Shown in pieces: positions 1 through 64,000 of a stretch of 64,000 nt of DNA. Within the stretch, counting starts at the first letter, position 1. The number at the start of each line of letters is the position of its first letter. A model generated the notes under the pieces. It saw only the letters and a list, made by a program, of their open reading frames with translations, was not told where the DNA came from and did not search any database. This stretch comes from Patescibacteria group bacterium (GTDB taxonomy: Bacteria > Patescibacteriota > Microgenomatia > Daviesbacterales > UBA10151), in contig JBBTSA010000010.1 of the NCBI GenBank assembly GCA_038064895.1, forward strand, positions 118,616 to 182,615. Reading direction: 5' to 3'. Made by a program: the position numbers and the translations under genes.

Positions 1-987
1 TGTTGTAAGAGAGATTAAAAAACCCGGTATAAAAAACATAAAAGTTAACCAGGGTAATATTAAGAAAAAGGGATTTAAAAAAATCTCTCCAAGTTCTGAA
101 TTTGTATACAAGTAAAATGGGTTGATGCCTAGTAAGCTAAAGGGTATAACTGACTGATTACTAATAGAGATTAAAGTCGATATATTACTGGATGCTGAAT
201 GTTGGGTTGAAACCAAAGGGGGTACGACTTTTATCGCCGGCCACAACCACCAGAAATGAATACAAAGCATAGCAATCAATCCTATAAACATTCTAAAGGA
301 TATTGACTTTAAGTTATTGAATCCTTTCCAAGGTATAAATACTTCAAATGCAGATATCAAAAAAATAAGCAAAATAATTGTGACAATAAAGGCCAATGCT
401 CCAAAAAGAGAAACAGCAAGAAAGTTAATCAGTAAAAAAATAAGTAAACTCGATGGCTTTCCTTCTCTAATCCACTTTCCCCAAAAAATAAAAAAGAAAG
501 GTAATGCTGCCATCAGTACAAATGTGTTATGAATAAACCTGTGCCAAACTTGAATCATCATGTATGGATTAAACATGTAAAAAAGACCTGCCAGTATTGC
601 CAAAATAACTTTCTCCTTCCCAAGGATACTCAAAGCCAAAAGAAACATTCCGTAACCTGAAAGAAAAAGAATTAACCAAAAAAGTACCGCCTGAATAGCA
701 ACATACGAGAGGCCAACTTCCTGGAAAAGTGATTGAAAAAGTTGTAGAAGTACAGAAGTCAGACCATGCGGAACAGTGGTACCAGGGGCAGCTGCTTCCC
801 ACCATATATATTTTGTAATATCCAAGATTCTTTTTGGATCATAAGATGGCAATCCTACATCTCCTCCACCGTAAAGCAAACCATATTTAAACCAGGAAAA
901 AATAATAATAGTACTAATGAAAGCAAAAAATAAAACTGCCAAAAAATAACTATTAACAAATATTTTTTTAAACTTTTTCACTGACAT
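1..987 (-). CDS. Partial (3' end runs off the window start) polytopic membrane protein, putative GT-C-like glycosyltransferase, family D paralog of 7077..9215
   Basis: My own translation of the minus strand gives an uninterrupted frame from ATG (987-985), starting MSVKKFKKIFVNSYFLAVLFFAFISTIIIFSWFKYGLLYGGGDVGLPSYDPKR... through the left edge of the window. It has many hydrophobic helices. The N-terminal loop motif F.W..G....GG(D/E).G.P.YD matches 7077..9215 (LWFSKGLIFAGGEEGIPFYDLDK). Its start overlaps the stop of 968..2611 in the compact-operon style seen throughout. The tabulated ORFs 317..532(+) and 569..805(-) are spurious by comparison. Confidence 0.55.
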   Translation of the reverse strand, partial: MSVKKFKKIFVNSYFLAVLFFAFISTIIIFSWFKYGLLYGGGDVGLPSYDPKRILDITKYIWWEAAAPGTTVPHGLTSVLLQLFQSLFQEVGLSYVAIQAVLFWLILFLSGYGMFLLALSILGKEKVILAILAGLFYMFNPYMMIQVWHRFIHNTFVLMAALPFFFIFWGKWIREGKPSSLLIFLLINFLAVSLFGALAFIVTIILLIFLISAFEVFIPWKGFNNLKSISFRMFIGLIAMLCIHFWWLWPAIKVVPPLVSTQHSASSNISTLISISNQSVIPFSLLGINPFYLYTNSELGEIFLNPFFLILPWLTFMFFIPGFLISLTT

Positions 988-2611
988 CCTTGTAAGCTAT
1001 AAAAGTATAATCACAAAGTGGCGGAAATAAATAATAAATAGGGGTAGCGGCAATATTTAAGGCATAGAAGAATTTTCTTATTATATCGCTATCAATTTTA
1101 TGAACAATTCCCTGATCACCGAGTAGCCATTTCCATCCGTATTTTTTTATCTTATATCCCCTTTTTTTAAATTCATCAGGAGTAAAGGCAGATTTATGCA
1201 GCTGCCAGATATTACCATCCTCAGCCGGGTGGTAGTGCTCGCCGATAGGAGTAGCAATTATCACCTGTATCTTTGCTATCCTTTCCATATTTTCTAAAAC
1301 TTTCCAGGCATCTTTTTCATCCATATGTTCAAGCACATGAGAAGCAATTACTACGTCAAAGGATTTTGGTGGAAATTTAACTTTTCTAATATCCTTTTGA
1401 ATATATTCATCATGAATTTTATTGGCCTTACCATAAGCAATATAAGGTTCAAAAAGATCTACGCCCACACTGTGACTAATTTTCATACGCAGTTTAATCA
1501 TTTCCATTGGTTTACCTTGACCGCAACCCAAATCAAGAATACTCTTAGCTGAATGATCTATTACCCAAGGCAACGGATCAGTCATTCCCATTAAATAAAT
1601 TTTGAGTGGATCCAATTTCTTATCTAAACTATTATAAGCTCTATTAATAAATGAGCTAAACGGATAAATAAGGCAATACGTTAATCCTGATGTAAAACCT
1701 AACCAGTATTTAATGAGGATGTCAAATCTTCTGCTGCTTAAAATGATCAAGGAATGAGCTATGGTATATGCCGGGAGCAGTATGAAAAAAAATACCAGAT
1801 TTTGGGGAAAAGGTGAGTGTTTACGCATAAAAATCATCTTATTTCTAGCAACTCTGTATGCTCTTTCAGGAGAGGTAATCCCCAACCATTCAATCCAGGG
1901 ATGGACATAGGAACTTTTTTTACCTTGGTGCCAGGTCTTGGCTTCAGAATAATAATAAATCTTAAACCCTGCTTTCCTGGCCCTAAAGGAAAAATCACTA
2001 TCTTCGTAAGGGATAAAATACTCCTTATCATAGTTACCAATTTTATTAAAAACTTCCCGTTTGACCATCCATACGCAACCGCACATTGGCACTTCCAGAA
2101 GTCCTCTATATTGTCCACGATCTTCTTCTCTTACTCCCCAAGCATTCACTCTACCTGTCAGCAAATCTATATCATGGCCTGCCCCTTGCAACATATTTTT
2201 TTTCTGCTTGTCATACAGAAGCGGCGCAATAATCCCTGCATCTTTTCTTTTTTCAAAAGCCTCTACCAGTTGCTTAATCATATCGACCTCCGCATAAGAA
2301 TCGTCATCTGCAAAAAGAACAAAGTCACCTGTTGCAAGTTCCAGCCCCTTGTTTCTACCTTCAGCTGCTCCCAAATTAACATGACTTGTTACCAGTTTAA
2401 CTTTAGGATATTTTTTAGGTAGCCAGGTTAAAAGTGGAGGACGCGAAGCATTATCTACCACAATAACCTCAATTTTTTTATATGAGGATTTAAAATAAGA
2501 GTCTAAACACTCTATTAAATCTTTTTTTCTGTCTTTACTAACTATAACTACAGAAACTAATTTTTGATTTTGCATAAAAAGCTTGGAAAGTATACCAAAA
2601 AGGTAAGACAA
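968..2611 (-). CDS. Fusion protein: N-terminal GT2 (GT-A fold) glycosyltransferase, central transmembrane segment(s), C-terminal class I SAM-dependent methyltransferase
   Basis: N-terminus KLVSVVIVSKDRKKDLIECLDSYFKSSYKKIEVIVVDNASRP and FADDDSYAEVDMI (DXD) are typical GT2. The middle region NLVFFFILLPAYTIAHSLIILSS...LTYCLIYPFSSFI is hydrophobic. The C-terminus has ILDLGCGQGKPMEMI (MTase motif I) and VVIASHVLEHMDEKDAWKVLENM (motif II/III region). Confidence 0.7.
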   Translation of the reverse strand: MSYLFGILSKLFMQNQKLVSVVIVSKDRKKDLIECLDSYFKSSYKKIEVIVVDNASRPPLLTWLPKKYPKVKLVTSHVNLGAAEGRNKGLELATGDFVLFADDDSYAEVDMIKQLVEAFEKRKDAGIIAPLLYDKQKKNMLQGAGHDIDLLTGRVNAWGVREEDRGQYRGLLEVPMCGCVWMVKREVFNKIGNYDKEYFIPYEDSDFSFRARKAGFKIYYYSEAKTWHQGKKSSYVHPWIEWLGITSPERAYRVARNKMIFMRKHSPFPQNLVFFFILLPAYTIAHSLIILSSRRFDILIKYWLGFTSGLTYCLIYPFSSFINRAYNSLDKKLDPLKIYLMGMTDPLPWVIDHSAKSILDLGCGQGKPMEMIKLRMKISHSVGVDLFEPYIAYGKANKIHDEYIQKDIRKVKFPPKSFDVVIASHVLEHMDEKDAWKVLENMERIAKIQVIIATPIGEHYHPAEDGNIWQLHKSAFTPDEFKKRGYKIKKYGWKWLLGDQGIVHKIDSDIIRKFFYALNIAATPIYYLFPPLCDYTFIAYKDVSEKV

Positions 2612-2640
2612 ATAAAATTAGCTCTCTTTGTGAGTAAGGA

Positions 2641-4938
2641 TCAACTTTTTAATACCTTCCAAAGGTTAATCCCATTTCCAACTCCTGACCACATCAGTTC
2701 TGTTTTACAAGTACATATTTTTTGAGGATCTGTTTTTTCTCCTAACACTAAATAATCATAATCATCTTTTTCTCCATAATACGTTAGATCAACATCTATT
2801 TGGAAATTATAGAAACTACCATTTGATCCAGGATAATAGACTTTTCTGTCAATTAGAGCCACTCTGGTACTACGATAGATATCTTCGTGTATCTCAGGGT
2901 AGCCTTCTAAATAATACGAACCAATCTTGGGTGCAATTTGTGAAAGTTCAGCTAAAGTTCCTCCTAGATCTTTTCCATAAGTAAAATAATCATCTAAGAT
3001 CTCCAAAATTACTATATTGTTACTAGTTGTGGATTTATGAATGGGTTTAAAAAAGGAGGAATTTGATAAGTCAGGGACTCTTTGTTTGGGTAATTGAGAT
3101 ATATATGTATCATTAACAATTATATATTTAACTTTTAATTGTTTTAATAAACTAGGATTTAGAGTAAAAAATATGTCATTGTAAGTAGGGCTTGTTCCCA
3201 TCCCATAAAGCACCCTGATATTTGGTGGCCAAAGCGGTGTAAAAGCTCCTTCCTCTCTCAAAATTGAACCATAAGGAGAAGTCGTTGGAAAAGCATCTAC
3301 AAAAATTAAAATCCTATCTTGTAGCTTTATATTATCTTTAACCCACTTAAAAACCGGAAAATCTGTATTTGTGGATCTAGTGTACCAATTATAATCTGGT
3401 CTGGGATAAAGAAGTAAGAATGCTGGAATAATTGAAATTAAAAATATCCAAATAAAGATTGCCTTAAAAAAATAATTTATTTTCTCCCAAAATAAGTAAA
3501 CAAGATAAACAATATTCAAACCAGATAGATAATATGATAACCCCAGTAAACGATTGCCATTTATGTGAAGATAACCTTTGGGTACTATAGCATGATAGGC
3601 AAATAAAGCTATCAGTGACGTCAGGGACAAAATCCATAATCTAGCTACGTTATTTCTATCTTTAGTATATTTCCATAGTAAAAAAGTGCTAACAATAAAA
3701 AATAATCCAGTTCTCCAAGGCATTCCTAAGTTAAAAAAAATAAAAGGGTAATATTCTTGATTATTAATCAGTTTACTTCGTTGCTGAGCTAAGCGATCAC
3801 TCCTATAGTTCTTAGCTGATGGACCATATTCGTCAGGAGGGAAAATCAGGAGATCACTTGATGTGTGATCAGGGTTAAGGACAACATTTGATAGAATACC
3901 TCCTTGGAACACAATTAATAACACTAGTACCAGGGTAAAATTTAGAAATTTTAAAAATGATTTTCTAAAAATAGCAAAAAACATTACTAATAAAATTGCA
4001 GGAACGGTTACTATAAATGTTGATTCATCAGTTAAACCCATAGAAGCAAGCAGAACTGTAATGGTAGCTAGAAAGAAAATATTTTTTTTGGGTGAGAATA
4101 TTATTACTAGTGAGGTTATAAACATACCCAATGTTAAAATACGGTGAGGAAAAAGCATAAAGGATTCCAGAGTGGTTTGAGTGCCATAAGTTACAAACGC
4201 CTGAGGGAGAGTTGGTAGCTTTTGTAACCAATTTAAAATTGTCCCATTGAGATGTGGAAGAGCTAAACTAACCGGCCAAGCAAGCCAAATGCTCCCTAAA
4301 GAAATTAATCCAAAGGCAGCGGGTACAAAATACATTAAAAGAGGGACTTTTTTGACTTTTAAAAACCAAGTTAATATTAAAGTTAAACAAAACAGTCCGA
4401 TAAATTCAAAAAAAGCAAATAAAAATTCATAAGGAGTACCAGTAATAGTTCTGGTAGCAGCCAATAACTCAGCAAATCCTATGTGATAATTTGCCAGATA
4501 ATCAGGTTGCCAGGGAAGATGAATGGGATAATCTCCCCTGGCAAAGACTGATCCTAAGGCATAATGAGTAAAAGAATCAGCACTCATAGCAGGTCCTGAA
4601 GCAGTGATAGTTAATAGGAATATAAACCATGTTAAAGTAGATCCCCAAAAGACAAAACCTTTCTTTGGAAAATATATGGGGTCAGTTTTAGTATATTTTT
4701 TTATAAAAAATGCTCCTGTCAAAAGAATAAATAGAGAAATGTAAAAGTCAGCAGGACCTTTTATTAAGTGAGCTACTAAATTTATAAGAAAAATATAACA
4801 ACTAATCCCCAAGATCGTTCCAGAAGGTATTAATACCTGGATTCGATTTTCTGTTGTAATCCTTCTTAGGAGAACCCAACCACTCCAAAAAAGTGCAGCA
4901 ATAAAAAGAAATGTTATAGGGTAGCTTGTAAAATGCAT
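2641..4938 (-). CDS. Polytopic membrane protein, family A (765 aa). About 13 predicted TM helices plus a roughly 250 aa C-terminal soluble domain; putative GT-C-like glycosyltransferase
   Basis: Paralog of 33161..35473 and 55382..57733. Shared blocks are RRITTENRIQVLIPSGTILGISCYIFLINLVAHLIKG, HLPWQPDY, DESTFIVT and the C-terminus YDYLVLGEKTDPQKICTCKTELMWSGVGNG. No STT3 WWDYG motif seen. Immediately downstream of GT2 4954..5871 on the same strand. Confidence 0.5.
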   Translation of the reverse strand: MHFTSYPITFLFIAALFWSGWVLLRRITTENRIQVLIPSGTILGISCYIFLINLVAHLIKGPADFYISLFILLTGAFFIKKYTKTDPIYFPKKGFVFWGSTLTWFIFLLTITASGPAMSADSFTHYALGSVFARGDYPIHLPWQPDYLANYHIGFAELLAATRTITGTPYEFLFAFFEFIGLFCLTLILTWFLKVKKVPLLMYFVPAAFGLISLGSIWLAWPVSLALPHLNGTILNWLQKLPTLPQAFVTYGTQTTLESFMLFPHRILTLGMFITSLVIIFSPKKNIFFLATITVLLASMGLTDESTFIVTVPAILLVMFFAIFRKSFLKFLNFTLVLVLLIVFQGGILSNVVLNPDHTSSDLLIFPPDEYGPSAKNYRSDRLAQQRSKLINNQEYYPFIFFNLGMPWRTGLFFIVSTFLLWKYTKDRNNVARLWILSLTSLIALFAYHAIVPKGYLHINGNRLLGLSYYLSGLNIVYLVYLFWEKINYFFKAIFIWIFLISIIPAFLLLYPRPDYNWYTRSTNTDFPVFKWVKDNIKLQDRILIFVDAFPTTSPYGSILREEGAFTPLWPPNIRVLYGMGTSPTYNDIFFTLNPSLLKQLKVKYIIVNDTYISQLPKQRVPDLSNSSFFKPIHKSTTSNNIVILEILDDYFTYGKDLGGTLAELSQIAPKIGSYYLEGYPEIHEDIYRSTRVALIDRKVYYPGSNGSFYNFQIDVDLTYYGEKDDYDYLVLGEKTDPQKICTCKTELMWSGVGNGINLWKVLKS

Positions 4939-4953: not shown

Positions 4954-5871
4954 TTACCCTCTTCTAATTTTAGGTAATGGAATATATGATTTATTATTCA
5001 AAGGATACCAAAATCCAACTATAGTGCCAAAAACCATCTCAAAGAATTTATTAAGTTGACCAAACCTTACAGTTTCAATTAAATAATAAGTTAACAGGAA
5101 TGGAATAAATAAAGTGAAGGTAAAGATATTGCCATGTTTCCTCATGAATAAAACCCTGTTTCTTCCTAAAAGGTATGCCCTGGTTAATACTCTCGGCCTC
5201 CAAATATTTGGATCTTTTGATTGATCATGATAAGCGACAGCTTCGGGTGTATACCAGGTTATAAAACCCGCCTTTTTTGCCCGTAAACAATACTCCGGAT
5301 CAAAATAACAAAGAAACCAATCTTCAAATCCGCCGATTTTGTCAATAACAGATCTTAAATAAAGCATTACTGTTCCGGAATTTTGAACCTCTTTTGCTTG
5401 TAAAAAGTTTTTCTTTAGTCCCCATCCAACTGTAACTTTTCCGGTTATTAAATTCACATTTGCTCCTGCTTGATTAACCCAATTTTTATCGGAAAGATAG
5501 AGAATCATGGGTATCACTATACCTATATCAGGGCGAAAGTCCGAAGCCTCCACCAATTTTAAAATCATATCTTTATCAACTACCACATCATCATCTACAC
5601 AAAGAATGTGATTCTTGCGCTTAGCATGGGCAAATCCCAAATTGTAACATCCGGTTTGACCAATGTTTTTCTCTCCGGCGTAAATCCATTTAACCCATTT
5701 GTATTTCTTTTTACCCTCTTGCATGACATCGTATGCAGGACTGTTATCCACAACAATTACTTCAAGTTTTGGATAATTAGAATCTTTTAAAGACTTAAGT
5801 AATCTAAAAAGTCTATTTTTTCCGTTAAATGTTGGTATAACTGCAGAAACACCAGGTAGAGACTTTTTCAT
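4954..5871 (-). CDS. Glycosyltransferase family 2 (GT-A fold)
   Basis: VSAVIPTFNGKNRLFRLLKSLKDSNYPKLEVIVVDNSP and CVDDDVVVDKDMI (DXD). Length 305 aa. Confidence 0.75.
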   Translation of the reverse strand: MKKSLPGVSAVIPTFNGKNRLFRLLKSLKDSNYPKLEVIVVDNSPAYDVMQEGKKKYKWVKWIYAGEKNIGQTGCYNLGFAHAKRKNHILCVDDDVVVDKDMILKLVEASDFRPDIGIVIPMILYLSDKNWVNQAGANVNLITGKVTVGWGLKKNFLQAKEVQNSGTVMLYLRSVIDKIGGFEDWFLCYFDPEYCLRAKKAGFITWYTPEAVAYHDQSKDPNIWRPRVLTRAYLLGRNRVLFMRKHGNIFTFTLFIPFLLTYYLIETVRFGQLNKFFEMVFGTIVGFWYPLNNKSYIPLPKIRRG

Positions 5872-5892
5872 AACGACGGGTATTATAACGTA

Positions 5893-7080
5893 TCACGTTA
5901 TATAACTTAATACTTCATTTGCTCTTTTATCCCAAGACCAATTTTGAGTAATCATAGATTTAGCTTGATTCCCTATTTTGGAATATGCTTTTTTATCTCT
6001 TAAGAGATTCAGTATCTCTTCTGCAAAGGCTTCCATATCATTTATTGGAACTTTTACCATTCCTTTTGGGTAATATGATTTATATGAAATAAGATTAAAA
6101 CCAACTGCAGGTAGTCCGAAAGCCATTGCCTCGGCCGAAGCCATCCCTCCTGAATCATAAAAAGCAGGATGAAGAACAACTTTGCTTTGAGCAAATATTT
6201 TGTATTTTTTCTCCCCGTCAAATACATATCCAAAAAGTACAATATTTTTTTGTAAATTTAACTTATCTATCCTTTTTTTTACATTGCTCATCAATGGACC
6301 ATCCCCTATTAAGGCTAACTTTGCGTCAGATTTTTGATCAACTACCAACTTCCAAATATTTATTAACTCCACAACTCCTTTTTGTGGATGGAAACGTCCC
6401 TGAAAAACTCCGTCGTATATCTTTGGTAATTTTCCTCCGCTTTCTTTGCGAATCCAATTTCCAATTTGTTTAAAATCAACTGCCCCCAATACTACTATTA
6501 CCTTTCCGCTCTTTTCCATGTCAGGAAACTGTTTTCTCTCATCTTCATTATTTACCAATACAAAATCTGCAAACTTTTTTATTAGAGGTTTAATAGGCAG
6601 TTGTACAAACCAGTATAAAAATGCATGCAATCTATATGAAAGAACTCTTTCTCCTTCTTTAAAACCCACCAGAGGATTTGGGGCTGTTTGAAACCACGTA
6701 GCCACCCAGGTAATCTTTGGAAACCTAAGCTTCCAAATCACTGCCGGCAAGGAATCCATCCAGAACTCCGAGGCCGAATACACAACAGTATCTTTTTCAT
6801 TTTTTAATTTGGTTGTGAGAGAAAACAAAATTGCAGATAAAATTACGGCAACATAATTTATAACAAATCCTAAATACTTCCAGGGGCTCATCTTTATTAC
6901 CATAAAAGTTACATCTTTACTGCTTAAACTTTGTCTTTTATACATTTCATAGCCTTCTTCCCAAACATAAATAGTAACCGGGTATAACCTGGCCCATCTT
7001 TTAGCAAATTCAGTCGCTATTCTGTCGCAGCCGGAAATCCCCTTTCCCTGTGCTGTCATACCAATCATTATAATATTCAT
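5893..7080 (-). CDS. Glycosyltransferase family 4-like (GT-B fold, GT1 superfamily)
   Basis: C-terminal motif GGMASAEAMAFGLPAVGF is the E-X7-E region of retaining GT4 enzymes. The tabulated ORF extends to 7116; the start is more likely MNIIMIG (ATG about 7080), which abuts the stop of the upstream gene at 7077 (ATGA-type overlap). Confidence 0.7.
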   Translation of the reverse strand: MNIIMIGMTAQGKGISGCDRIATEFAKRWARLYPVTIYVWEEGYEMYKRQSLSSKDVTFMVIKMSPWKYLGFVINYVAVILSAILFSLTTKLKNEKDTVVYSASEFWMDSLPAVIWKLRFPKITWVATWFQTAPNPLVGFKEGERVLSYRLHAFLYWFVQLPIKPLIKKFADFVLVNNEDERKQFPDMEKSGKVIVVLGAVDFKQIGNWIRKESGGKLPKIYDGVFQGRFHPQKGVVELINIWKLVVDQKSDAKLALIGDGPLMSNVKKRIDKLNLQKNIVLFGYVFDGEKKYKIFAQSKVVLHPAFYDSGGMASAEAMAFGLPAVGFNLISYKSYYPKGMVKVPINDMEAFAEEILNLLRDKKAYSKIGNQAKSMITQNWSWDKRANEVLSYIT

Positions 7081-12001: not shown

Positions 12002-12032
12002 TATAAATTTGGAATATAATATCACTACATTT

Positions 12033-50842: not shown

Positions 50843-50910
50843 TGGAAGGATTATACATTATGTCAATTTTAAAAATCAATAAGTTAGACTATACTTTCAA
50901 CTAGAAGATT
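50843..50910. promoter_or_regulatory. Divergent intergenic region (68 nt) between 50345..50842 (-) and 50911..51651 (+); candidate -10 TATACT about 12 nt upstream of the ATG at 50911
   Basis: AT-rich spacer between divergent genes; weak sigma70-like hexamer only. Confidence 0.25.
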
Positions 50911-53316: not shown

Positions 53317-53321
53317 CTTAT

Positions 53322-55416: not shown

Positions 55417-57733
55417 GACCTTTCCATATTAGTTTAGTTTGACAACGACAAACTGCCTTAGGATCTCTATTCTTACCTAAAACTAAGTAATCGTAATCAT
55501 CCTCATCCCTCAAAGGATGAGAGTTAATATTTGCTTCCACATTGAGATAAACTCCTGACTGCGGTAGAAAATATATTTCTTTGTCTCTTAAGCTAAAAAT
55601 AACTGCTCTCCTTAAAAAGGGGGGGTTAAAATATTCTTCATTATCAATGTAAATCTTTCCAGATGCTTCAAAAACCTCCTTAAACTCATTAAAAGTTCCT
55701 TCTATTTCTTGACCTTGCGCCAGATATTTATCGGTAATCAGATAAATTTTTTCCCAATCCGTTTCAACATTTGAGTTATCGAATAACTTTATAAAAAATT
55801 CTTCGTTTTGTAACTGCGCTTTTCTAATTTCAGGTAAAGTTTCAAAGTAGCTAGCATCTATTAGTAAAGTGGAGATTTTAAGTTTACGAAGTACTAGAGG
55901 ACTTAAATATACTGCTATATCAAAATATTCCGGAGAGGCCTCGATTGTATATGCTCTAAAATCTCCAGGAAAAATAGGAGCAAATACTCCCGCTTCCACT
56001 AATGCTCTTGACATGCCACTTGGATGAGGGGTACGGATATCTAAAACAACAACTCTGCTGTTATAAGGCAGATTATTTTTCATCCATTTGATACCTTCGC
56101 TACTTTTTTGGGGACTTGGTACCAGTTGATTCTCTCCAAATCTGGTTTTAGACAAAAGGGCAAGGGGAGGAATAATAGTGGGGACAAAAAGCCACAAAAT
56201 GAAAATAAAAAATAAAATTTTTTTTAAAAAAAATCCCTGTCTGATAAATTTGATGCTCTTTAGTAAAGTCAAGCAAATGACTAAAGAAAAAACCAAAAAA
56301 GAAAAAGATAAAAATCTATTGCCATTTGCCACTAAAAATTTAGGGACCAAAACATTGTATGCAACAAGCGAGGTGAAACCGGCAATAAATATAGTAAGCA
56401 ATAATATAAAGTACTTAAATTCAGTCCTAAGAATAATCAATATTAAAATGTTTATTAAAATTAGTAGATCTAGTCCTGCATGAAACCAACGAAGGCCTAA
56501 CCATTCATCTTTTACAGGCAGTGTTTTGGATATCGCCTGGTAATAATGATAAGAAGTAAAATCTTCCTTTATATCCTCTTTTTTGGGAAATACTATTACT
56601 GATTCTTCTTTTATTTTGGAAGGGCCAGTTGCAGAAGTAATAATACCACCCTGAAATAATATGATTAAAGATGTTAATACTCCCAGTAACATTAAAACCT
56701 TAAGATTTTTAAAAAGCGTTCCTTTATTTTTTTCTATTAATAATACACCCACAAATATTGCCGGAGCGGTAGCTACAAAAATTGACTCACTAACTAGAGC
56801 CAGCGTTGATAAACCCACAGATAAAGTAGTCCAAGTTGCTAAAGAATTATTTTTCCTATAATAAATTAGTATTGCTAAAATTGATAAAAAAATCGAAAGA
56901 CCAAATGAGTGAAAAATAAAGTAGATTAAGGCATCTAAGTTTATTGGTGCTCCATATACTTCGATTGACTGATTTACAGTCGGTAGGTTTCTAAGGAATA
57001 TAATAAGCTCATTAAAATTATGAATATTTGGCAAATGAATAGGAAAATTAGGTATTAAGAGGTAGAAAAAACCAAAACTTACAAACAAAGTAAGGCCTGC
57101 CAAATTAGCGAGTAAAAATGATAGCAGATCCTTAGATCTACCCCAAATCCAAATAAATATTTGGACACTACATAGTATAAACAGAGTAGAGAAAAAAAGG
57201 TGTAAAAATTTGAAGTCCAGTCCGGTAAACAGGTAAAATGCTCCCAAAAGTTCCGATGTACCCAAATGATACAAGAGAGGTAAATCTGGCTGCCAAGGGG
57301 TCAGGGAAGGAAAATTTCCTTTTATAAAAGTGTGTGCAACCCCGTAGTAAAGATTAGTATCGCTACCAATTAATGCATAACTACCTTTCCAGACCAAAAA
57401 GCTACCCCAAAAAACTAAGGAGGCAATATATAAAAGAAGTAACTTTCCGCCAGGAAATACCACTTTTGATAATCCCCTACTTAAATAAAAAATAATTGAT
57501 AAAGAAATCAAAATGAAATATGAAAATATTGCCCCGGTTAATCCTTTGATAAAAAAGGAGGTAATGTTTAGGCTAAAGATAAACAGCAATATACCGAAAA
57601 TGCTTCCCACCGGTAATAATAATTCAAATCTTTCTATGGAGGAGGTTTTTCGAAGTATTATTATTCCTGCAATTATTAAAGGAAGTAAAAGCACAAACAG
57701 TAAAAGATAAAAATACAGTGATTGAGTAAACAT
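55382..57733 (-). CDS. Polytopic membrane protein, family A (783 aa); putative GT-C-like glycosyltransferase
   Basis: RKTSSIERFELLLPVGSIFGILLFIFSLNITSFFIKG, LTPWQPDL, SESIFVAT, and C-terminus YDYLVLGKNRDPKAVCRCQTKLIWKGLNNE. Confidence 0.5.
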   Translation of the reverse strand: MFTQSLYFYLLLFVLLLPLIIAGIIILRKTSSIERFELLLPVGSIFGILLFIFSLNITSFFIKGLTGAIFSYFILISLSIIFYLSRGLSKVVFPGGKLLLLYIASLVFWGSFLVWKGSYALIGSDTNLYYGVAHTFIKGNFPSLTPWQPDLPLLYHLGTSELLGAFYLFTGLDFKFLHLFFSTLFILCSVQIFIWIWGRSKDLLSFLLANLAGLTLFVSFGFFYLLIPNFPIHLPNIHNFNELIIFLRNLPTVNQSIEVYGAPINLDALIYFIFHSFGLSIFLSILAILIYYRKNNSLATWTTLSVGLSTLALVSESIFVATAPAIFVGVLLIEKNKGTLFKNLKVLMLLGVLTSLIILFQGGIITSATGPSKIKEESVIVFPKKEDIKEDFTSYHYYQAISKTLPVKDEWLGLRWFHAGLDLLILINILILIILRTEFKYFILLLTIFIAGFTSLVAYNVLVPKFLVANGNRFLSFSFLVFSLVICLTLLKSIKFIRQGFFLKKILFFIFILWLFVPTIIPPLALLSKTRFGENQLVPSPQKSSEGIKWMKNNLPYNSRVVVLDIRTPHPSGMSRALVEAGVFAPIFPGDFRAYTIEASPEYFDIAVYLSPLVLRKLKISTLLIDASYFETLPEIRKAQLQNEEFFIKLFDNSNVETDWEKIYLITDKYLAQGQEIEGTFNEFKEVFEASGKIYIDNEEYFNPPFLRRAVIFSLRDKEIYFLPQSGVYLNVEANINSHPLRDEDDYDYLVLGKNRDPKAVCRCQTKLIWKGLNNEVYVLKRI

Positions 57734-57738: not shown

Positions 57739-58710
57739 TTGATATACTATACTACCAAACCGATGAAAAATAAAAAATATCAAAATATTTTAGTAACAGG
57801 GGGTGCAGGTTGTGTCGGATCAACTTTAGTTCCCCTACTGCTAAAAGCAGGTTATAAAGTAAGAGTTCTAGATAATTTAATGTATGGGGGTATGGGACTG
57901 TTAACCAATTTCTCAAATCCCAACTTTGAGGTGATCATTGGGGATATTAGAAATAAGACAGTCGTTACATCTGCATTAAAGAATATGCATGCTATTATCC
58001 ATTTGGCAGCAATAGTTGGTTATCCGGCTTGTGATAAATATCCCCGTGAAGCACAGGAGATAAACTATCAAGCCACGAAACAGCTAAATGAACTAAGAGG
58101 CAAAAATCAATTGCTTATCTTTGCTTCAACAGGAAGCAATTATGGTCATGTGGAATCCGGAATGTGTACAGAGGAAACTCCCCTTGCACCTCTTACTAAT
58201 TACGGAAGAAGTAAAACAAAGGCCGAAGAAGCTATCGTAACTTCTCCAAACGTCATCATTTATAGATTTGCCACTGCATTTGGTTTGTCTCCAAGATTAA
58301 GGCTTGATCTTTTTATCAACGATCTTACTTATCAAGCCCTCAAGACTAAACATTTAGTTATATATGAAAAAGATTATAGAAGAACATTTATTCATGTTAA
58401 AGATATGGCTAAATCTTTCATATTTGCTTTGGAAAATAGTTCAAAAATGATAGGTCAAACTTATAATGTCGGCGATGAATCAATGAATTTAAAAAAAGAA
58501 GATATAGTAAATATTTTACTTCAAAAACTGGAATTTATATTAAACTTTACTGACTCTGGTAGAGATGCTGATCAAAGAAATTACGCAGTTGATTATTCTA
58601 AAATTAAAAAACTTGGATTTAAAACAGATATTTCAATTGAGAATGGAACTGATGAGATGATTAATGCCTTCAAAGTTGTAACTATCAAAAACCCCTACTC
58701 TAATTATTAA
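57739..58710 (+). CDS. Extended-SDR NAD-dependent NDP-sugar epimerase/dehydratase
   Basis: ILVTGGAGCVGSTLVPLLLKAGYKVRVLDN, YGRSKTKAEE (YxxxK). Confidence 0.7.
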   Translation: MIYYTTKPMKNKKYQNILVTGGAGCVGSTLVPLLLKAGYKVRVLDNLMYGGMGLLTNFSNPNFEVIIGDIRNKTVVTSALKNMHAIIHLAAIVGYPACDKYPREAQEINYQATKQLNELRGKNQLLIFASTGSNYGHVESGMCTEETPLAPLTNYGRSKTKAEEAIVTSPNVIIYRFATAFGLSPRLRLDLFINDLTYQALKTKHLVIYEKDYRRTFIHVKDMAKSFIFALENSSKMIGQTYNVGDESMNLKKEDIVNILLQKLEFILNFTDSGRDADQRNYAVDYSKIKKLGFKTDISIENGTDEMINAFKVVTIKNPYSNY

Positions 58711-58715
58711 AGCCT

Positions 58716-59897
58716 ATGATCAAACTTATTAAATCAACCTTCCTAAATGAGTCAGAGGTCAAGAAAAAATTAGTCGAGTTTATTGTAAAAACAGAAATTT
58801 TGAGTATGGGAAAGGAGTGTCAAGAATTTGAGGAAAGCTTTACTAAATATCAAGAAAGAAAATATGCTGTCCTGGTAAACAGCGGTAGTTCAGCTAATCT
58901 TGCTTTAATTCAATCATTACTTAATCTTGGACGCCTTAAAAAAAGTGATCTTATTGGGTTTTCTGCGCTTACTTGGTCAACCAATACTATGCCGCTTTTG
59001 CAGCTTGGATTAAATCCAATACCAATAGATGTTGAAATTGATACTCTAAATATATGTAGTAAAACATTACTAAAAACCCTTAAGAAATATAAGCTACAAG
59101 CCCTATTTATAACTAACCTTTTGGGCTTTTGTGATGACATTGATAAAATCCAGCAAATTTGTAAGAAAAATAAAGTTTTGTTGATAGAGGATAATTGCGA
59201 ATCTTTAGGAACTGTTTATAAAGGTAAGAAATTGGGTAACTTTTCTCTTGCAAGCACTTGCTCGTTTTATGTTGCACATCATTTATCTACAATTGAGGGA
59301 GGGATTATCTGCACGGATGATAAGCAGTTAGCTAATATGCTTAAAATTGTCAGAGCTCATGGTTGGGATAGAAATCTCGATCAAGAAAGTCAAAAAATAT
59401 TACGCATAAATAATAAAGTTTCTGACTTTTATGCAAAATATACCTTCTATGATTTAGGTTATAACATAAGACCCACGGAGATTACAGGTTTTTTAGGAAA
59501 TTGCCAAATTGGATTTATAGATCAAGCGAACAAAAAAAGAGAGCAAAACTTTTTTAAACTTGCTAAAGTTATCTATTCTCAAACGGATAAATATTATCCT
59601 ATGAGATTTAATCATATTGAATTTTTATCAAATTTTGCAGTACCTGTTGTGTGTAAATCGAAAAGAATACTAAAAGATCTTCTAAAAAGATCTGCGGATA
59701 TAATAGAAGTCCGGCCAATTGAAGGAGGAGATATGACAGAACAACCCTTTTTTCAAAAATATCTTACAAATGTAAATAAAAATCTAGTTAATCCTAATGC
59801 TAGGGTAATACATAATCAGGGACTTTTTTTTGGAAACAATCCGGATTTAACAAAAAAAGAATTGAAGACAATTATAAATATTTTTAGCAACAATTAG
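58716..59897 (+). CDS. DegT-fold PMP-dependent NDP-4-keto-6-deoxyhexose 3-dehydratase-like (ColD/E1 class)
   Basis: DegT-family N-terminus (AVLVNSGSSANLALIQ). At the position of the Schiff-base Lys the sequence is FSLASTCSFYVAHHLSTIEGG, with His-His instead of Lys, followed by VRAHGWDRN. Both are hallmarks of the ColD/E1 3-dehydratases, recalled from memory. Confidence 0.6.
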   Translation: MIKLIKSTFLNESEVKKKLVEFIVKTEILSMGKECQEFEESFTKYQERKYAVLVNSGSSANLALIQSLLNLGRLKKSDLIGFSALTWSTNTMPLLQLGLNPIPIDVEIDTLNICSKTLLKTLKKYKLQALFITNLLGFCDDIDKIQQICKKNKVLLIEDNCESLGTVYKGKKLGNFSLASTCSFYVAHHLSTIEGGIICTDDKQLANMLKIVRAHGWDRNLDQESQKILRINNKVSDFYAKYTFYDLGYNIRPTEITGFLGNCQIGFIDQANKKREQNFFKLAKVIYSQTDKYYPMRFNHIEFLSNFAVPVVCKSKRILKDLLKRSADIIEVRPIEGGDMTEQPFFQKYLTNVNKNLVNPNARVIHNQGLFFGNNPDLTKKELKTIINIFSNN

Positions 59898-59902
59898 CCT
59901 AC

Positions 59903-60802
59903 ATGACAAAAATCTCTTCATTCAGTAGTATGAAAGATTATATTTCTTTAGCAACTGCTACATTTTATCCGTCATGGCCCTTTGATAAATCAGATAAAGT
60001 TAGGGGTGATTTGGCAATTGAAACATTGAAAGCAATAAAGCAAATGGGGCTTTCGCTTTATATATCAGATGGGGGAAGTTCAGAAGGTTTTCTTACTAAA
60101 ATTTCAAGCCTAGGATATAAAATATATACACAAAAAAAAGGCGGGTTAAGTGCCGGTCGAAGACAGGCTCTAACTCAAGCAAGTCTTAAAAAGGATAGCC
60201 TGGCTATTGTTTTATTTGAACCTGAAAAAGTATCATTTATAAAAGAATGCTTAATCAAGTTAGTTCAGTCTATAATAGAATCTCAAGCGGATATGGTAAT
60301 ACCAAAAAGGGATGAAGAATCATTTTTATCTTATCCATATTATCAAGCATCGTCTGAAAGGCTTCTTAATTCACTAATGGCTTCAATGATAATAAATGCT
60401 TTGAAAAAAAAGGGGGGGGCAATTCCAAAAAAAATTAATGAGATCGATTTTTTATTTGGACCGAAAATAATCTCAAATAAGCCCCACATTTTAGATCTGT
60501 TTATGGATAAATATGCCAGCAAAAATCTATCGGATGAGAAAAAATTTCAATGCGAGGTTTGGGCGAATGCTCTATTCTTCCCACTATTTGTAGCTTTATA
60601 TAAGGGGTCCAAGGTTATTAGTTTGCCTGTATCTTATTTTCACCCCAAAAGCCAAACACTTGTGGAGAAAAGTAACCCTTTATTCATTAGAAAAAGAGAG
60701 CACCAATTTAAAACTCTGCTGGATGCAACTAAAGAGCTTCTCTTACTACTTGAAAATAATCCTAAGTCACGTATAAAATATACTGGAAGATTTTATGAAT
60801 AA
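59903..60802 (+). CDS. Hypothetical protein; possible cryptic GT-A-fold nucleotide-sugar transferase
   Basis: No clear family. LSLYISDGGSSEGF and AIVLFEPEKV loosely resemble the GT2 DxGS and DXD regions. Contains the A8-G8 homopolymer tract at 60404-60419. Confidence 0.3.
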   Translation: MTKISSFSSMKDYISLATATFYPSWPFDKSDKVRGDLAIETLKAIKQMGLSLYISDGGSSEGFLTKISSLGYKIYTQKKGGLSAGRRQALTQASLKKDSLAIVLFEPEKVSFIKECLIKLVQSIIESQADMVIPKRDEESFLSYPYYQASSERLLNSLMASMIINALKKKGGAIPKKINEIDFLFGPKIISNKPHILDLFMDKYASKNLSDEKKFQCEVWANALFFPLFVALYKGSKVISLPVSYFHPKSQTLVEKSNPLFIRKREHQFKTLLDATKELLLLLENNPKSRIKYTGRFYE

Positions 60803-61730
60803 ATCATCAAAGATTTATATTGCAGGACATAAGGGGCTTGTAGGATCTGCTATTTTGCATAAATTCCAATCCGAAGGATATAAAAATATTATTACAAGAA
60901 CCCATTCTGAATTGGATCTCACAAGACAAGATTTGGTAGAAGATTTTTTTAATCAGGAAAAACCTCATTATGTCATTATAGCGGCCGCTCGCGTTGGAGG
61001 TATAAAAGCAAATATGACCTATCCTGCAGAATTCTTATATGAAAATTTAAGTATTCAAAATAATATAATTTGGTCAGCTCTTAAAACCGGCACAAAAAAG
61101 TTAATGTTTTTAGGAAGTTCTTGTATCTATCCCCGGCAGTGTCCTCAACCCATGAAAGAAGAGTACTTACTAACCGGTAAACTGGAACCAACAAATGAAG
61201 CATACGCGGTTGCTAAAGTCGCAGGTCTAAAATTATGTGAATACATAAAGCGTGAATTAAAAAAATCATTTATTTCTGTAATGCCAACGACTATTTATGG
61301 GCCAAAGGACCATTTTGACCCGCTCATCGCTCATGTAGTTCCTTCTTTAATAAGAAGAATGGTGGAAGCTAAAAAATTAAACTCTAAGTCTATAGAAATT
61401 TGGGGAACAGGTAATTCCAGAAGGGAATTTTTATATGTTGATGATTTAGCGGATGCAATTTATTTTCTAATGCAAAACTATGATAGTAAAGATTTTATTA
61501 ATATAGGTGTTGGCAACGATATCTCTATTAAAGAACTGACATATATCTTAAAAGATCTTACCGGGTTTAAGGGTAAGTTAGTCTTTGATAGATCTAAACC
61601 GGACGGCATGCCTAGAAAACTAATGGATACTCAAAGGCTTAATAAACTTGGCTGGAGACCAAAGGTTGATCTCAGGGAAGGATTAAAACAAACTATTGAT
61701 TGGTATATGGAAACATTATCGAAAGACTAA
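60795..61730 (+). CDS. GDP-L-fucose synthase family (Fcl/WcaG/ColC; GDP-4-keto-6-deoxy-D-mannose 3,5-epimerase/4-reductase or colitose synthase)
   Basis: Near-collinear match to remembered E. coli Fcl: KIYIAGHKGLVGSAI, AAARVGGIKANMTYPAEFLYENL, LMFLGSSCIYP, LEPTNEAYAVAKVAGLKLCE, IWGTGNSRREFLYVDDLA, DRSKPDGMPRKLMDTQRLNKLGW. Confidence 0.85.
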   Translation: MNKSSKIYIAGHKGLVGSAILHKFQSEGYKNIITRTHSELDLTRQDLVEDFFNQEKPHYVIIAAARVGGIKANMTYPAEFLYENLSIQNNIIWSALKTGTKKLMFLGSSCIYPRQCPQPMKEEYLLTGKLEPTNEAYAVAKVAGLKLCEYIKRELKKSFISVMPTTIYGPKDHFDPLIAHVVPSLIRRMVEAKKLNSKSIEIWGTGNSRREFLYVDDLADAIYFLMQNYDSKDFINIGVGNDISIKELTYILKDLTGFKGKLVFDRSKPDGMPRKLMDTQRLNKLGWRPKVDLREGLKQTIDWYMETLSKD

Positions 61731-62857
61731 TATGGCTCGATTATTTTATTTATAAAATCAAGACTCTCAAGGATAGATTGCTTCCATGAGAATTTTTTAC
61801 TCCATTTTACTGCTTCTACTCTCATTCTCTGATATCTACTATAATTACTTAATAAATCCATTAGTTCAGAAGCTAAACTATTTACGGAATGTTGTTTATC
61901 AATTATTCCAGTTTTACCATTTAAAATAGAATCTCTAAGACCCGGCACATCAAATGCAACGGTTGGTGTACCCATTGCAGCTGCCTCGATTACCACTAAA
62001 CCCCAACCTTCACGGATTGAAGGATTTATTAAAACATGTGCTTTTGCTAACAGTTTATATTTCTTTTTTTCTGAAACATGTCCCCAGAACTTAACTTTTT
62101 TAGAAATTCCCAAATCTTTAACCTTTTTTTTAAGATAATCTAAATATTTTAATTCTGATCTACCCACAACCCAAAATTGCCATCCCTTTTGTGCACGATT
62201 AACTGTAGCAAAAACTTTTATAGCATCTTCTATACCCTTATCTTTGCTTAATACACCAAGATAAATCAGAGTTTTATTCTTTTCTTTTGGGGGAAGTTTC
62301 TTTTTTCGGGGTTGATCTATACCATTATGTACAATCGTAATATTTTTTGGAGGAACTCCCCACAAAGTTAGATCTTGTTTTGTGGAATCCGATACCGTTA
62401 TAAATGGTATTCGGCTATATATTAATTTAAAGATAAATGGCTCAAATAATGGTCCAAAAAGAGCAGGAAGTAAATTAAATGGTGTTGGCCAAGAGTTGAA
62501 CTTCCATACCTCCTTAGTAACCTCGTGTATAAAAGCTAATTTTTTAGTTCTAATATAAAGAGGGGTAAAAAAGGGTATGCCGTGAAATTGATCTATCACT
62601 AAATCAAATTTTTTGTGACTACCAAATAGATACCATATAAAGGCTTGAAGTTGAACTCCAAAAATTTCGGATCCAACTCTTTTGACATTAATTCCATCAA
62701 GTGTCTCCTCATTTTTGGCTCCTTTAAAGTTTGCTGTAAAAAGGGTTACATTATGCCCTGCGCTTACCCAACCTTTAGCATGCTCATGAGTTGATATTTC
62801 TGCTCCGCCCGCATTCGGATGACCCGGTCCACGCCAAGAGAAAAGTAATATATTCAT
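61727..62857 (-). CDS. Glycosyltransferase family 4 (GT-B fold)
   Basis: NPSIREGWGLVVIEAAAMGTPTVAFDVPGLRDSI (E-X7-E). Confidence 0.75.
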   Translation of the reverse strand: MNILLFSWRGPGHPNAGGAEISTHEHAKGWVSAGHNVTLFTANFKGAKNEETLDGINVKRVGSEIFGVQLQAFIWYLFGSHKKFDLVIDQFHGIPFFTPLYIRTKKLAFIHEVTKEVWKFNSWPTPFNLLPALFGPLFEPFIFKLIYSRIPFITVSDSTKQDLTLWGVPPKNITIVHNGIDQPRKKKLPPKEKNKTLIYLGVLSKDKGIEDAIKVFATVNRAQKGWQFWVVGRSELKYLDYLKKKVKDLGISKKVKFWGHVSEKKKYKLLAKAHVLINPSIREGWGLVVIEAAAMGTPTVAFDVPGLRDSILNGKTGIIDKQHSVNSLASELMDLLSNYSRYQRMRVEAVKWSKKFSWKQSILESLDFINKIIEPY

Positions 62858-63975
62858 AAGTTTTGAACTTTATATATTACTATATTGTTACTTTTAAAGA
62901 TAACCTCCAAATTACTACTTTTGTTTAAGCAATCACTAGTTTTAGCAACAACGTATGCAATCATATTCTCTTTTAAAAATGCCTTATTGTTATCATTAAG
63001 TTCGCATCTAAAAAAGGCTTTTACCTGCTGTTTTCTGTCGGTATAATCTACCAGTAAACCATCTAGTAAGGCATCGCTTCCATAAAACAATTGCTGATTA
63101 GAATACGCTGATAAAAATACACTCACGGTAAAATCAGGGGAAGCAAGGAGTATGCCACGCTTCTGGCTGGATAAAAATCCTGCCGCTTCAACTAATTCAT
63201 TGTCTATGGTGAAAGAATTAACAGGATTATAAATCTTAATAGGATTATAAACATTTAGGGTGAAAATTACTCCGGGCAATAAGCTAAGCCAAATAAGTAA
63301 ACCCAAAGTTATGCTTAAAAGGGGCTTTCTAAGATATAGAAAACCAAGGACAACGGCTGTCAAAACTCCTAAACTAACTACGGCAGGGTAGAAAAATTGT
63401 ATTGTTACAATAGCACCACCAACATATATAAAAGACATTGTTAGAACGAAAGCCCAAAGCGCCGATAATATAAGCAGCAAAATCACTACTTTCTTAAGAA
63501 AATCTATTTTAAGAAAAGCTGAAAATAAGCCACTCAAAAAAGGCCCCAAATTAATTATCAAAAATAATAAAATTCCTTCTAAATAAAGTTTTAAGATTCC
63601 ACGATAACCCCCTATTGATAATAAATATTGTCTTTTCAACTCCCACTCCGGGAAATTTAATCTGTCAGAAGCCTCATACATTACTCTTATAAACCAAAAG
63701 GGACTAAAGATAAGGGTTTTCTGACCCAAGCTAACTGTAGGGACTAAAAATACAGCCCCAATAGGTAAACTGAAGATAAAAATTTTCAAAATAGTAAAAT
63801 TTCCAAGTAATAGCATGAAAAGGCCTAAGGTACCGATAGCGGCAAACATTACTAGTGCCGTATGGGATTTTATAGCAAAAAGTGATCCTAAAATAATTGA
63901 TATCAAAAGAATAGACTTTAAATTAAATTTTTGAATTATTAGTAGAAGATAGCAGACCGCAAAAAATAAGATCAT
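62854..63975 (-). CDS. Polytopic membrane protein (about 10-11 helices, 373 aa); possible Wzy/O-antigen-ligase-like or other glycan membrane enzyme
   Basis: Almost entirely hydrophobic helices with short loops and no soluble domain. One larger loop (KRQYLLSIGGYRGILKLYLEG) is present. The function is not assignable from sequence. Confidence 0.35.
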   Translation of the reverse strand: MILFFAVCYLLLIIQKFNLKSILLISIILGSLFAIKSHTALVMFAAIGTLGLFMLLLGNFTILKIFIFSLPIGAVFLVPTVSLGQKTLIFSPFWFIRVMYEASDRLNFPEWELKRQYLLSIGGYRGILKLYLEGILLFLIINLGPFLSGLFSAFLKIDFLKKVVILLLILSALWAFVLTMSFIYVGGAIVTIQFFYPAVVSLGVLTAVVLGFLYLRKPLLSITLGLLIWLSLLPGVIFTLNVYNPIKIYNPVNSFTIDNELVEAAGFLSSQKRGILLASPDFTVSVFLSAYSNQQLFYGSDALLDGLLVDYTDRKQQVKAFFRCELNDNNKAFLKENMIAYVVAKTSDCLNKSSNLEVIFKSNNIVIYKVQNL

Positions 63976-64000
63976 AGAAAAAAGAAGTGGGTAGTTAACT

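Follow-up and report, generated by a model that had tools for sequence, protein, structure and literature searches.

The 64-kb window described here, that is, the whole stretch of DNA analysed from contig JBBTSA010000010.1, is the central part of a larger island of GT-C membrane glycosyltransferase genes in the genome of a groundwater bacterium of ultra-small size that belongs to Candidatus Daviesbacteria (Patescibacteria, or candidate phyla radiation, CPR). We consider it fairly probable that the island directs two-stage assembly of a cell-envelope glycan, in which a lipid-linked primer is flipped across the membrane and then elaborated outside by GT-C enzymes. The product is probably an unusually complex cell-surface glycan, built outside the cell membrane. 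The source is a metagenome-assembled genome from Hainich groundwater metagenomes (0.1-um filter fraction; locus tags AAB414_025xx).

The listing of open reading frames (ORFs) together with gap analysis gives a coding share of 98% and about 55 genes: 53 ORFs of at least 150 amino acids (aa), one of 137 aa and one gene running off the left end. The GC content is about 33% and no tRNA genes were found in the 64 kb. Kyte-Doolittle hydropathy identifies 14 polytopic membrane proteins, two of which are cut by the window ends and 12 of which are complete (g02, g05, g17, g18, g30, g31, g32, g33, g34, g37, g38 and g47; 484-783 aa). This agrees with an earlier description made by a model from the letters and an ORF list, here called the sequence-only reading, which had counted at least 13 such proteins of 480-780 aa. 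The 14 GT-C genes take up about 25.3 kb (39% of the window bases), a density at which a chance arrangement is excluded. Pfam was run on every window ORF of at least 150 aa and on part of the flanking genes, and the 137-aa ORF was scanned with NCBIfam only. These scans give 10-11 GT2, 3 GT4 and 7 methyltransferase domains in the window, matching the roughly 13 GT-A/GT-B glycosyltransferases and 7 methyltransferases counted before.

All-against-all BLAST reproduces the paralogue families proposed from the letters, namely A with three members, B with two, C with five and D with two, plus one ArnT-like protein, which is g17. Family A (g02, g30, g47) has 28-40% identity over the full length and family C (g32, g33, g34, g37, g38) 26-47%. 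The two members of family B (g18, g31) are 27% identical (E 2.5e-18), and this family is distantly related to family C (BLAST E 1e-8 to 1e-18; g18 to g33, 5e-8). In family D, g05 and g00 are 27% identical over about 600 aa (pairwise BLAST, E 1e-54). The singleton g17 is related to PMT_2: it has 276 relatives in a library of 1.84 billion proteins, and 13 of the 60 that were aligned match that Pfam family (best 1.2e-6). Families A and C are kept as separate families because hhalign shows no detectable relationship between them at profile level (probability 2.7%). The family of g53, by comparison, aligns with family A over 583 columns (probability 97%, E 4.7e-11), its invariant D137 falling on D127 of family A, and g17 matches family C weakly (probability 56%) with the DE and DDW motifs aligned.

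Acidic motifs stand directly after the first hydrophobic helix: PDDW or GDDW in family C and g31, EDEDW in g18, ADESRY in g17, AGGEEG in g05 and GGGDVG in g00. All the motifs quoted in the sequence-only reading (DDW, DEDW, ADESRY, GGEEG) have this position. Among 45 aligned sequences of family C, D43 and W44 are invariant and D42 is kept in at least 90%, right after the first transmembrane (TM) helix; the C-terminal domain is beta-rich with two nearly invariant cysteines. The D-W pair is also invariant in an alignment that includes g18, and D34/E35 in 60 sequences of the g17 family. In family A, which has three additional N-terminal helices, D127 is invariant among 52 sequences, as are a PWQPD motif, H158 and a C-x-C pair, and the positive-inside rule places both the N-terminus and D127 outside. 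Judged by charge distribution and the same rule, the acidic loops after the first TM helix would lie outside the membrane, and the acidic motifs after the first core helix would have the catalytic role expected in GT-C enzymes.

Direct Pfam and NCBIfam scans of the window membrane proteins returned nothing beyond PF11847 (GT-C_AftD) in g05 (1.2e-12, 47.1 bits against a cut-off of 26); no Pfam or NCBIfam model covers families A and C. Profile searches of PDB sequences with families A and C, g53, g17 and the 1183-aa protein to which g00 belongs gave no significant match. Because sequence searches mostly failed, fold assignment needed structure prediction, which was done for families A and C, with alignments of 52 and 45 homologues. 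The models have a predicted local distance difference test (pLDDT) score of 91 and a predicted template modelling (pTM) score of 0.91. Both methods of structure comparison return GT-C folds as their only significant neighbours, after which the similarity falls steeply to unrelated helical repeats. The figures listed for the structure comparison are STT3B 18.6, Pmt2 17.3, Pmt4 17.1, AglB 17.0, AftA 16.3, ALG12 16.3, PglB 14.6, AftB 13.0, AftD 12.7 and ArnT 12.7, and the top Foldseek matches of g30 are DPY19 and STT3. As modelled, families A and C have the GT-C fold; the remaining window membrane proteins have it as judged by homology. The expectation that these families are GT-C enzymes and not Wzy polymerases, ligases or transporters is borne out on these two grounds.

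A Wzy, WaaL or transporter identity was rejected for the membrane proteins, no such fold being found among the structural neighbours. Canonical oligosaccharyltransferases were rejected because the WWDYG motif is missing: a regular-expression scan found neither WWD nor W[WY]D[YFWN]G in any of 15 GT-C sequences, and the family alignments have no such conserved column.

The AftD-like proteins of family D differ in how well they match known models. While g05 exceeds the gathering score of the AftD model, g00 and a 1128-aa paralogue in the left flank have faint or no Pfam matches and are 27% identical to g05 over about 600 aa. The 1183-aa and 1128-aa proteins have C-terminal regions of about 600 aa that end in a TM helix, and g05 is much shorter. 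The sole carbohydrate-binding module (CBM) match among them is a weak one to CBM_4_9 (E 0.004, below the cut-off) in the 1128-aa paralogue.

Five small GT2 proteins (g16, g19, g39, g43, g46; 235-262 aa) form a BLAST cluster of their own, apart from the larger GT2. Their profile matches the Pyrococcus dolichol-phosphate mannose synthase (DPMS) structure 5mlz at 1e-36 over positions 8-231 of 245, ArnC at 1.6e-23 and GtrB at 7e-23, and with other GT2 structures the match is limited to about 110 residues at the N-terminus. These matches point to DPM1/ArnC/GtrB-like polyprenyl-phosphate sugar synthases. Four of the five adjoin a GT-C gene (g16 and g17, g18 and g19, g38 and g39, g46 and g47), and the pairing recurs in related loci. 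The GT-C enzymes would accordingly be predicted users of lipid-phosphate-linked sugar donors. The sequence-only reading had argued for an extracytoplasmic polyprenyl-phosphate-sugar system with many transfer steps and against a conventional O-antigen or capsule cluster. The first part is supported by the interleaving of GT-C genes with putative synthases; the second has to be modified, as a flippase gene flanks the window and conventional export is not dispensed with.

One operon, from g24 to g16, lies entirely on the minus strand with overlapping gene ends. Besides a 3-dehydrogenase and two aminotransferases of the DegT type, its genes specify a dehydratase-like short-chain dehydrogenase/reductase (SDR) and a formyltransferase that resembles the ArnA N-domain (215 bits to the ArnA model); an ArnC-like GT2, a pair of GT-C proteins and one more small GT2 complete the set. 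The products of g20-g24 would be formamido and amino sugars. The Arn (PmrHFIJKLM) pathway is alike in its DegT/ArnB-like aminotransferase, ArnA-N-like formyltransferase, ArnC-like GT2 and GT-C enzyme. However, the ArnA-N-, ArnB- and ArnC-like matches are all below NCBIfam cut-offs, so that an Arn set at equivalog level is not reached, and neither an ArnD deformylase nor ArnE/F was found. CPR bacteria are monoderm, with no lipid A to modify, and the 4,6-dehydratase and 3-dehydrogenase point to a formamido sugar other than that of Arn.

The island extends beyond both window ends. At least six further GT-C genes lie outside, giving at least 20 in about 86 kb; neither island end was reached, so that both the size of at least 86 kb and this count are lower bounds. 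Outward on the right, the remainder of g53 is followed by a GT2 of 268 aa, a MOP/Wzx-family (Polysacc_synt) gene, a PIG-V-like GT-C gene, a 248-aa GT2, two PMT_2 genes, a 560-aa PMT_2-related protein, a 225-aa protein and another PMT gene. The left flank holds the rest of g00, the 1128-aa AftD-like paralogue (35% identical) and the start of an 890-aa polytopic protein.

The MOP/Wzx gene is 1.5 kb beyond the right window end (L006:6030-7316, window-equivalent 65,542-66,828) and matches PF13440 (4.3e-21) and PF01943 (1.8e-17), both above cut-off. The window itself has no Pfam match to Wzx, ABC-transporter or Wzz families, as had been claimed. For the island the claim fails: the absence of Wzx is an artefact of the window boundary, because the gene sits just outside. 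A standard export system next to the window, named beforehand as evidence that would count against the polyprenyl-phosphate-sugar model, is present in part, as the flanking MOP/Wzx gene; no Wzy or Wzz was seen beside it, nor any ABC exporter in the roughly 86 kb examined. The flanking flippase therefore makes the island better read as a hybrid of a cytoplasmic Leloir stage, a flippase and a GT-C stage.

Two proteins of 110 and 111 aa with four TM helices are encoded in the left flank (L001:17500-17832 and L001:21213-21548), each after an AftD-like GT-C gene. They are 29% identical to each other and have no Pfam match. In size and topology they resemble GtrA/SMR/ArnE-F flippases and may be candidate small flippases.

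The assembly that we propose would proceed as follows. Cytoplasmic enzymes would produce activated and modified sugars (amino, formamido, acetamido, uronic, deoxy, C-methyl, O-methyl and carbamoyl), and about nine Leloir GT2/GT4 enzymes would assemble a lipid-linked oligosaccharide primer on the inner membrane face. The five DPM1/ArnC/GtrB-like GT2 of the window would load polyprenyl phosphate with single sugars, two further small GT2 of the right flank being candidates for the same role. The MOP/Wzx-type flippase would move lipid-linked intermediates over, and the two small four-helix proteins may do likewise. The 14 GT-C enzymes of the window, and at least 20 in the island, would then add sugars from polyprenyl-phosphate donors to the lengthening glycan on the outer face by means of the acidic motif after the first core helix. 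The analysis shows the gene content, the GT-C fold, the conserved acidic motifs, the DPMS-like character of the small GT2, the flippase gene in the flank and the conservation of the locus; from these we infer the donor type, the sidedness, the order in which the enzymes act and the acceptor. The acceptor is most likely a polysaccharide, linked to the wall or to a lipid, and a surface protein is a possible one.

The features of the window are, in order:

1-987, minus strand: g00, AftD-like GT-C (family D), N-terminal 329 aa or so of a 1183-aa protein, GGGDVG after the first TM helix; off the left window end
968-2611, minus strand: g01, GT2 (GT-A) fused to an S-adenosylmethionine (SAM) methyltransferase (PF00535 2e-25, PF08241 9e-16)
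2641-4938, minus strand: g02, family A GT-C, 765 aa, 40% identical to g30 over the full length; fold by way of the g30 model
4954-7116, minus strand: g03 (GT2) and g04 (GT4), cytoplasmic Leloir glycosyltransferases (Pfam)
7077-9215, minus strand: g05, AftD-like GT-C (family D), 712 aa, AGGEEG (PF11847)
9208-12040, minus strand: g06 (GT2) and g07 (NodU-like O-carbamoyltransferase) (Pfam, NCBIfam)
11991-14592, plus strand: g08 (HAD phosphatase), g09 and g10 (sugar-1-phosphate nucleotidyltransferases) and the 137-aa HIT-like ORF; sugar activation (Pfam, ORF listing, NCBIfam)
14594-17462, minus strand: g11 (inositol-monophosphatase family), g12 (RmlD-like reductase) and g13 (GT2) (Pfam, NCBIfam)
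17498-19164, plus strand: g14 (UDP-GlcNAc 3-dehydrogenase-like) and g15 (hexapeptide N-acetyltransferase) (Pfam, NCBIfam)
19167-19925, minus strand: g16, small GT2, putative DPM1/ArnC/GtrB-like polyprenyl-phosphate sugar synthase (profile of the five small GT2)
19913-21367, minus strand: g17, PMT_2/ArnT-related GT-C, 484 aa, D34-E35 (ADESRY) after the first TM helix; relatives match PMT_2
21364-23052, minus strand: g18, family B GT-C, EDEDW motif, at the ArnT position of the arn-like operon (BLAST, alignment)
22950-23657, minus strand: g19, small GT2, putative ArnC/DPM1-like polyprenyl-phosphate sugar synthase (Pfam, profile)
23654-28869, minus strand: g20 to g24, formyltransferase (ArnA N-domain-like), PseC/ArnB-like aminotransferase, 4,6-dehydratase-like SDR, second aminotransferase and UDP-GlcNAc 3-dehydrogenase-like protein (Pfam, NCBIfam)
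28903-33159, mixed strands: g25 (GDPD-like) on plus; g26 and g27 (SAM methyltransferases), g28 (GT4) and g29 (GT2) on minus (Pfam)
33161-35473, plus strand: g30, family A GT-C, 770 aa, three extra N-terminal TM helices, invariant D127, PWQPD, putatively AglB-S2-like C-terminal globular domain
35442-37247, plus strand: g31, family B GT-C, 601 aa, GDDW (BLAST to g18 and family C, alignments)
37233-42835, minus strand: g32, g33 and g34, tandem family C GT-C genes (605, 629 and 628 aa), D42-D43-W44
42835-44871, mixed strands: g35 (weakly methyltransferase-like) on minus; g36 (SAM methyltransferase with two C-terminal TM helices, 43924-44871) on plus (Pfam, hydropathy)
44852-48327, minus strand: g37 (630 aa) and g38 (526 aa, internal deletion), family C GT-C (BLAST, alignment)
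48331-49086, plus strand: g39, small GT2, putative polyprenyl-phosphate sugar synthase adjoining family C (Pfam, profile)
49067-51651, mixed strands: g40 (sugar C-methyltransferase) and g41 (DUF5667 secreted or anchored protein) on minus; g42 (SAM methyltransferase) on plus (Pfam)
51632-52366, plus strand: g43, small GT2, putative polyprenyl-phosphate sugar synthase (Pfam, profile)
52363-54572, minus strand: g44 (SDR epimerase/dehydratase) and g45 (nucleotide-sugar 6-dehydrogenase) (Pfam; TIGR03026, 300 bits against a cut-off of 190)
54628-55416, plus strand: g46, small GT2, putative polyprenyl-phosphate sugar synthase, convergent with g47 (Pfam, profile)
55382-57733, minus strand: g47, family A GT-C, 783 aa (BLAST to g30 5.7e-109, alignment)
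57739-61730, plus strand: g48 (SDR), g49 (RfbH-like pyridoxal-phosphate enzyme), g50 (weakly GT2-like) and g51 (GDP-L-fucose-synthase-like) (Pfam, NCBIfam)
61727-62857, minus strand: g52, GT4 (GT-B) glycosyltransferase (PF00534 1.5e-37)
62854-64000, minus strand: g53, C-terminal 382 aa of a 641-aa GT-C, distant relative of family A; the gene runs on to window-equivalent 64,779 (full gene L006:8079-10004)

The 373-aa ORF listed for g53 is an artefact of the window end, and an antisense ORF of 201 aa inside the g01 gene (1817-2422, plus strand) is most likely spurious. Pfam and NCBIfam place a varied set of sugar-modification genes between the glycosyltransferases: a nucleotide-sugar dehydrogenase, several SDR epimerases and reductases, GDP-fucose-synthase-like and RfbH-like proteins, a C-methyltransferase, several SAM methyltransferases, a hexapeptide acetyltransferase, a NodU-like carbamoyltransferase and two nucleotidyltransferases. 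Directly 3' of the two sugar-1-phosphate nucleotidyltransferase genes is the 137-aa ORF (14179-14592, plus strand), which has a histidine-triad-like motif, SHFHTHLI, and no NCBIfam match; one possibility is a nucleotidyl hydrolase or transferase of the HIT family with an activated sugar as its substrate. The DUF5667 protein g41 (165 aa, 50345-50842, minus strand) has an N-terminal signal or anchor helix and lies between SDR and C-methyltransferase genes. DUF5667 is also faintly matched in the 1183-aa AftD-like protein.

The locus is conserved in close relatives. Homologue clusters number 58 for family A, 53 for family C and 21 for g53; none has a Pfam domain, and the named ones are Candidatus Daviesbacteria. 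In a scan of one genome per GTDB species, family C is present in only six genomes, all of them Daviesbacteria or mislabelled relatives. Six related loci are syntenic in the order g47-g46-g45-g44-g41-g40-(RmlD-like)-g39-[family C, two to three copies]-g31-[family A]. Their sugar-precursor enzymes are about 80% identical to those of the window and their GT-C genes 35-69%. Among the individual genes, g31 orthologues have 59-69% identity, g39 is 73-76% identical in the six loci and g46 about 80%; g40 is kept and g41 has the same position in six of six. The copy number of family C varies among the six loci. At L011:13817-15183 two adjacent short ORFs, of 206 and 249 aa, each match a different stretch of the family C proteins. 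They appear to be the pieces of a paralogue that was split or is decaying, which would fit a turnover of GT-C copies among the species.

A methyltransferase of the g36 type with predicted C-terminal TM helices is found beside family C in three related species (L008:9054-9977, L009:9054-9977 and L011:7171-8049), with two such helices in the window, L008 and L009 and one in L011. Its substrate for methylation at the membrane may be a lipid-linked donor or intermediate. The records L009, L010 and L011 are titled 'uncultured Gammaproteobacteria bacterium ... binchicken' but hold a Daviesbacteria-type island with 44-82% identical proteins, and the names look wrong.

Several observations weigh against two-stage assembly with polyprenyl-phosphate donors. 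The window has no protein with a recognisable domain of a GtrA/SMR-type flippase, and the roughly 86 kb examined yielded neither an LCP ligase nor an initiating phosphoglycosyltransferase, nor any candidate for the acceptor. By hydropathy, the small GT2 do not end in membrane helices as GtrB and ArnC do. For g17, g18, g31, g38 and g53 the fold is assigned by homology. Moreover, families A and C are at least as similar to oligosaccharyltransferases (STT3, AglB) as to monosaccharide transferases, and some of these enzymes could transfer oligosaccharides en bloc or act on proteins.

This last point leads to the alternative that survives best, protein glycosylation, in which some or all of the GT-C enzymes, especially family A with g53 and family C, would be PMT-, DPY19- or oligosaccharyltransferase-like and, instead of building a polysaccharide, act on surface proteins such as S-layer proteins, pili or adhesins. 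The Foldseek ranking of g30, the AglB-like similarity and the PMT and PMT_2 matches of the right flank all speak for it. We nevertheless think it unlikely, as the GT-C proteins have no WWDYG-type motif, three paralogues are AftD-like, one of them with the weak CBM match, no candidate acceptor protein was found, and about nine cytoplasmic Leloir glycosyltransferases together with a MOP flippase argue for a lipid-linked glycan.

A conventional Wzx/Wzy cluster of the O-antigen or capsule kind, where a repeat unit of cytoplasmic origin would be flipped by the flanking Wzx and polymerised and the GT-C enzymes would only decorate side chains afterwards in the manner of Gtr serotype conversion, is less probable still, and we would be surprised to see it confirmed. 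In its favour are the MOP/Wzx gene 1.5 kb from the window, the many GT2/GT4 and nucleotide-sugar genes, which are typical of O-antigen clusters, and the GT2-GT-C pairs, which resemble Gtr modules (PMC11127046). On the other hand, among the window ORFs of at least 150 aa and those flank genes that were scanned or pre-assigned, none matches a Pfam family for Wzy, Wzz/PCP or an initiating phosphoglycosyltransferase, though a divergent Wzy can escape Pfam. Every polytopic protein tested is a GT-C protein without Wzy or WaaL neighbours, the GT-C genes, at least 20 in the island and making up 39% of the window, far exceed a decorating role, and a monoderm CPR bacterium offers no O-antigen context. 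That the membrane proteins are not glycosyltransferases at all but transporters, polymerases, ligases or structural proteins of GT-C-like composition is hardly credible: most have no Pfam or NCBIfam match and profiles find no solved structure, but the models are of high confidence and two methods give them no significant neighbours other than GT-C folds, acidic motifs are conserved at the place where GT-C catalysis would need them, and adjoining genes encode putative DPMS-like donor synthases.

The two-stage reading has its closest parallel in mycobacterial arabinogalactan and lipoarabinomannan synthesis (AftA-D, EmbA-C, MptA-C and PimE, with decaprenyl-phosphate-arabinose and polyprenyl-phosphate-mannose as donors), where GT-C enzymes also act in series on the outer face after a Leloir stage and flipping, an order that would apply here by prediction. 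Both systems include AftD-type proteins; in the island these are g05, g00 and the 1128-aa flank paralogue, which may share the large C-terminal extracytoplasmic domains of AftD. In AftD, K39 and D41 after the first TM helix are essential (bioRxiv 10.1101/2019.12.22.885152), and the acidic residue D41 has a counterpart in D43 of g00. In contrast to the dispersed GT-C genes of mycobacteria, those of the island are in one cluster. The mycobacterial donor route has a UbiA-type phosphoribosyl pyrophosphate transferase, whereas the island donors are predicted to come from DPM1/GtrB-type GT2, and the mycobacterial sugars are arabinofuranose and mannose, whereas amino, formamido and methylated sugars are predicted here. 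The genome is also estimated at about 1 Mb and belongs to a CPR bacterium, not to Actinobacteria, and families A and C are not covered by existing models.

Three-component systems (GtrA/GtrB/GtrV, CsbB/GtcA/YfhO and Citrobacter GT136; PMC11127046) are alike in the pairing of synthase and GT-C enzyme, which for the island would go together with a candidate flippase from the flanks, and this pair is repeated at least four times in the window. In the known systems a single side-chain sugar is attached to an already completed polymer, whereas the island has at least 20 GT-C enzymes and 5-7 candidate synthases. It also differs in that the synthases end without TM helices and that, instead of a recognisable GtrA/SMR flippase, the flanks hold only the MOP protein and the two small four-helix proteins. 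Compared with STT3, AglB and PglB, the sequence identity of the families is 8-13%, WWDYG is missing and family A has its three extra N-terminal helices.

The GT-C kind of enzyme and polyprenyl-phosphate-sugar-dependent extracytoplasmic glycosylation are known already. What appears to be new is that families A (with g53) and C (with B) are without Pfam or NCBIfam models and confined to Daviesbacteria-like CPR genomes, that family A joins extra N-terminal helices with a putatively AglB-like C-terminal domain, and that at least 20 GT-C genes are packed in one conserved island of a very small genome. A literature search for CPR, Patescibacteria or Daviesbacteria together with GT-C or glycosyltransferase found no description of such an island. 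It offers several GT-C families without an existing model but with predicted structures of high confidence and clear candidate catalytic residues as targets for biochemistry and for definition in CAZy and Pfam.

The genomes of CPR/Patescibacteria are tiny, and many of the core biosynthetic pathways are missing from them. At least 86 kb of surface-glycan genes amount to about 7-10% of a genome of about 1 Mb, a size estimated from the 770-kb scaffold of a relative. This genomic investment points to the cell surface as central, be it for host attachment, protection or phage defence, and the locus represents three-component glycosylation logic scaled to a whole assembly line outside Actinobacteria. 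A bolder and more tentative proposal, which we would not expect to hold in full, is that Daviesbacteria, and perhaps other Microgenomates, have a major, lineage-specific envelope polymer built almost wholly outside the membrane by at least 20 GT-C enzymes, independent of the mycobacterial system. Two to three GT-C families would then be unknown elsewhere, family A with g53, in which the three extra N-terminal helices would be joined to a C-terminal domain like that of archaeal AglB, might be a new kind of oligosaccharyl- or protein glycosyltransferase, and paralogue number might encode glycan diversity. If this is true, the variation in paralogue number between species would be variation in surface glycans and could bear on host attachment or phage evasion in these episymbionts.

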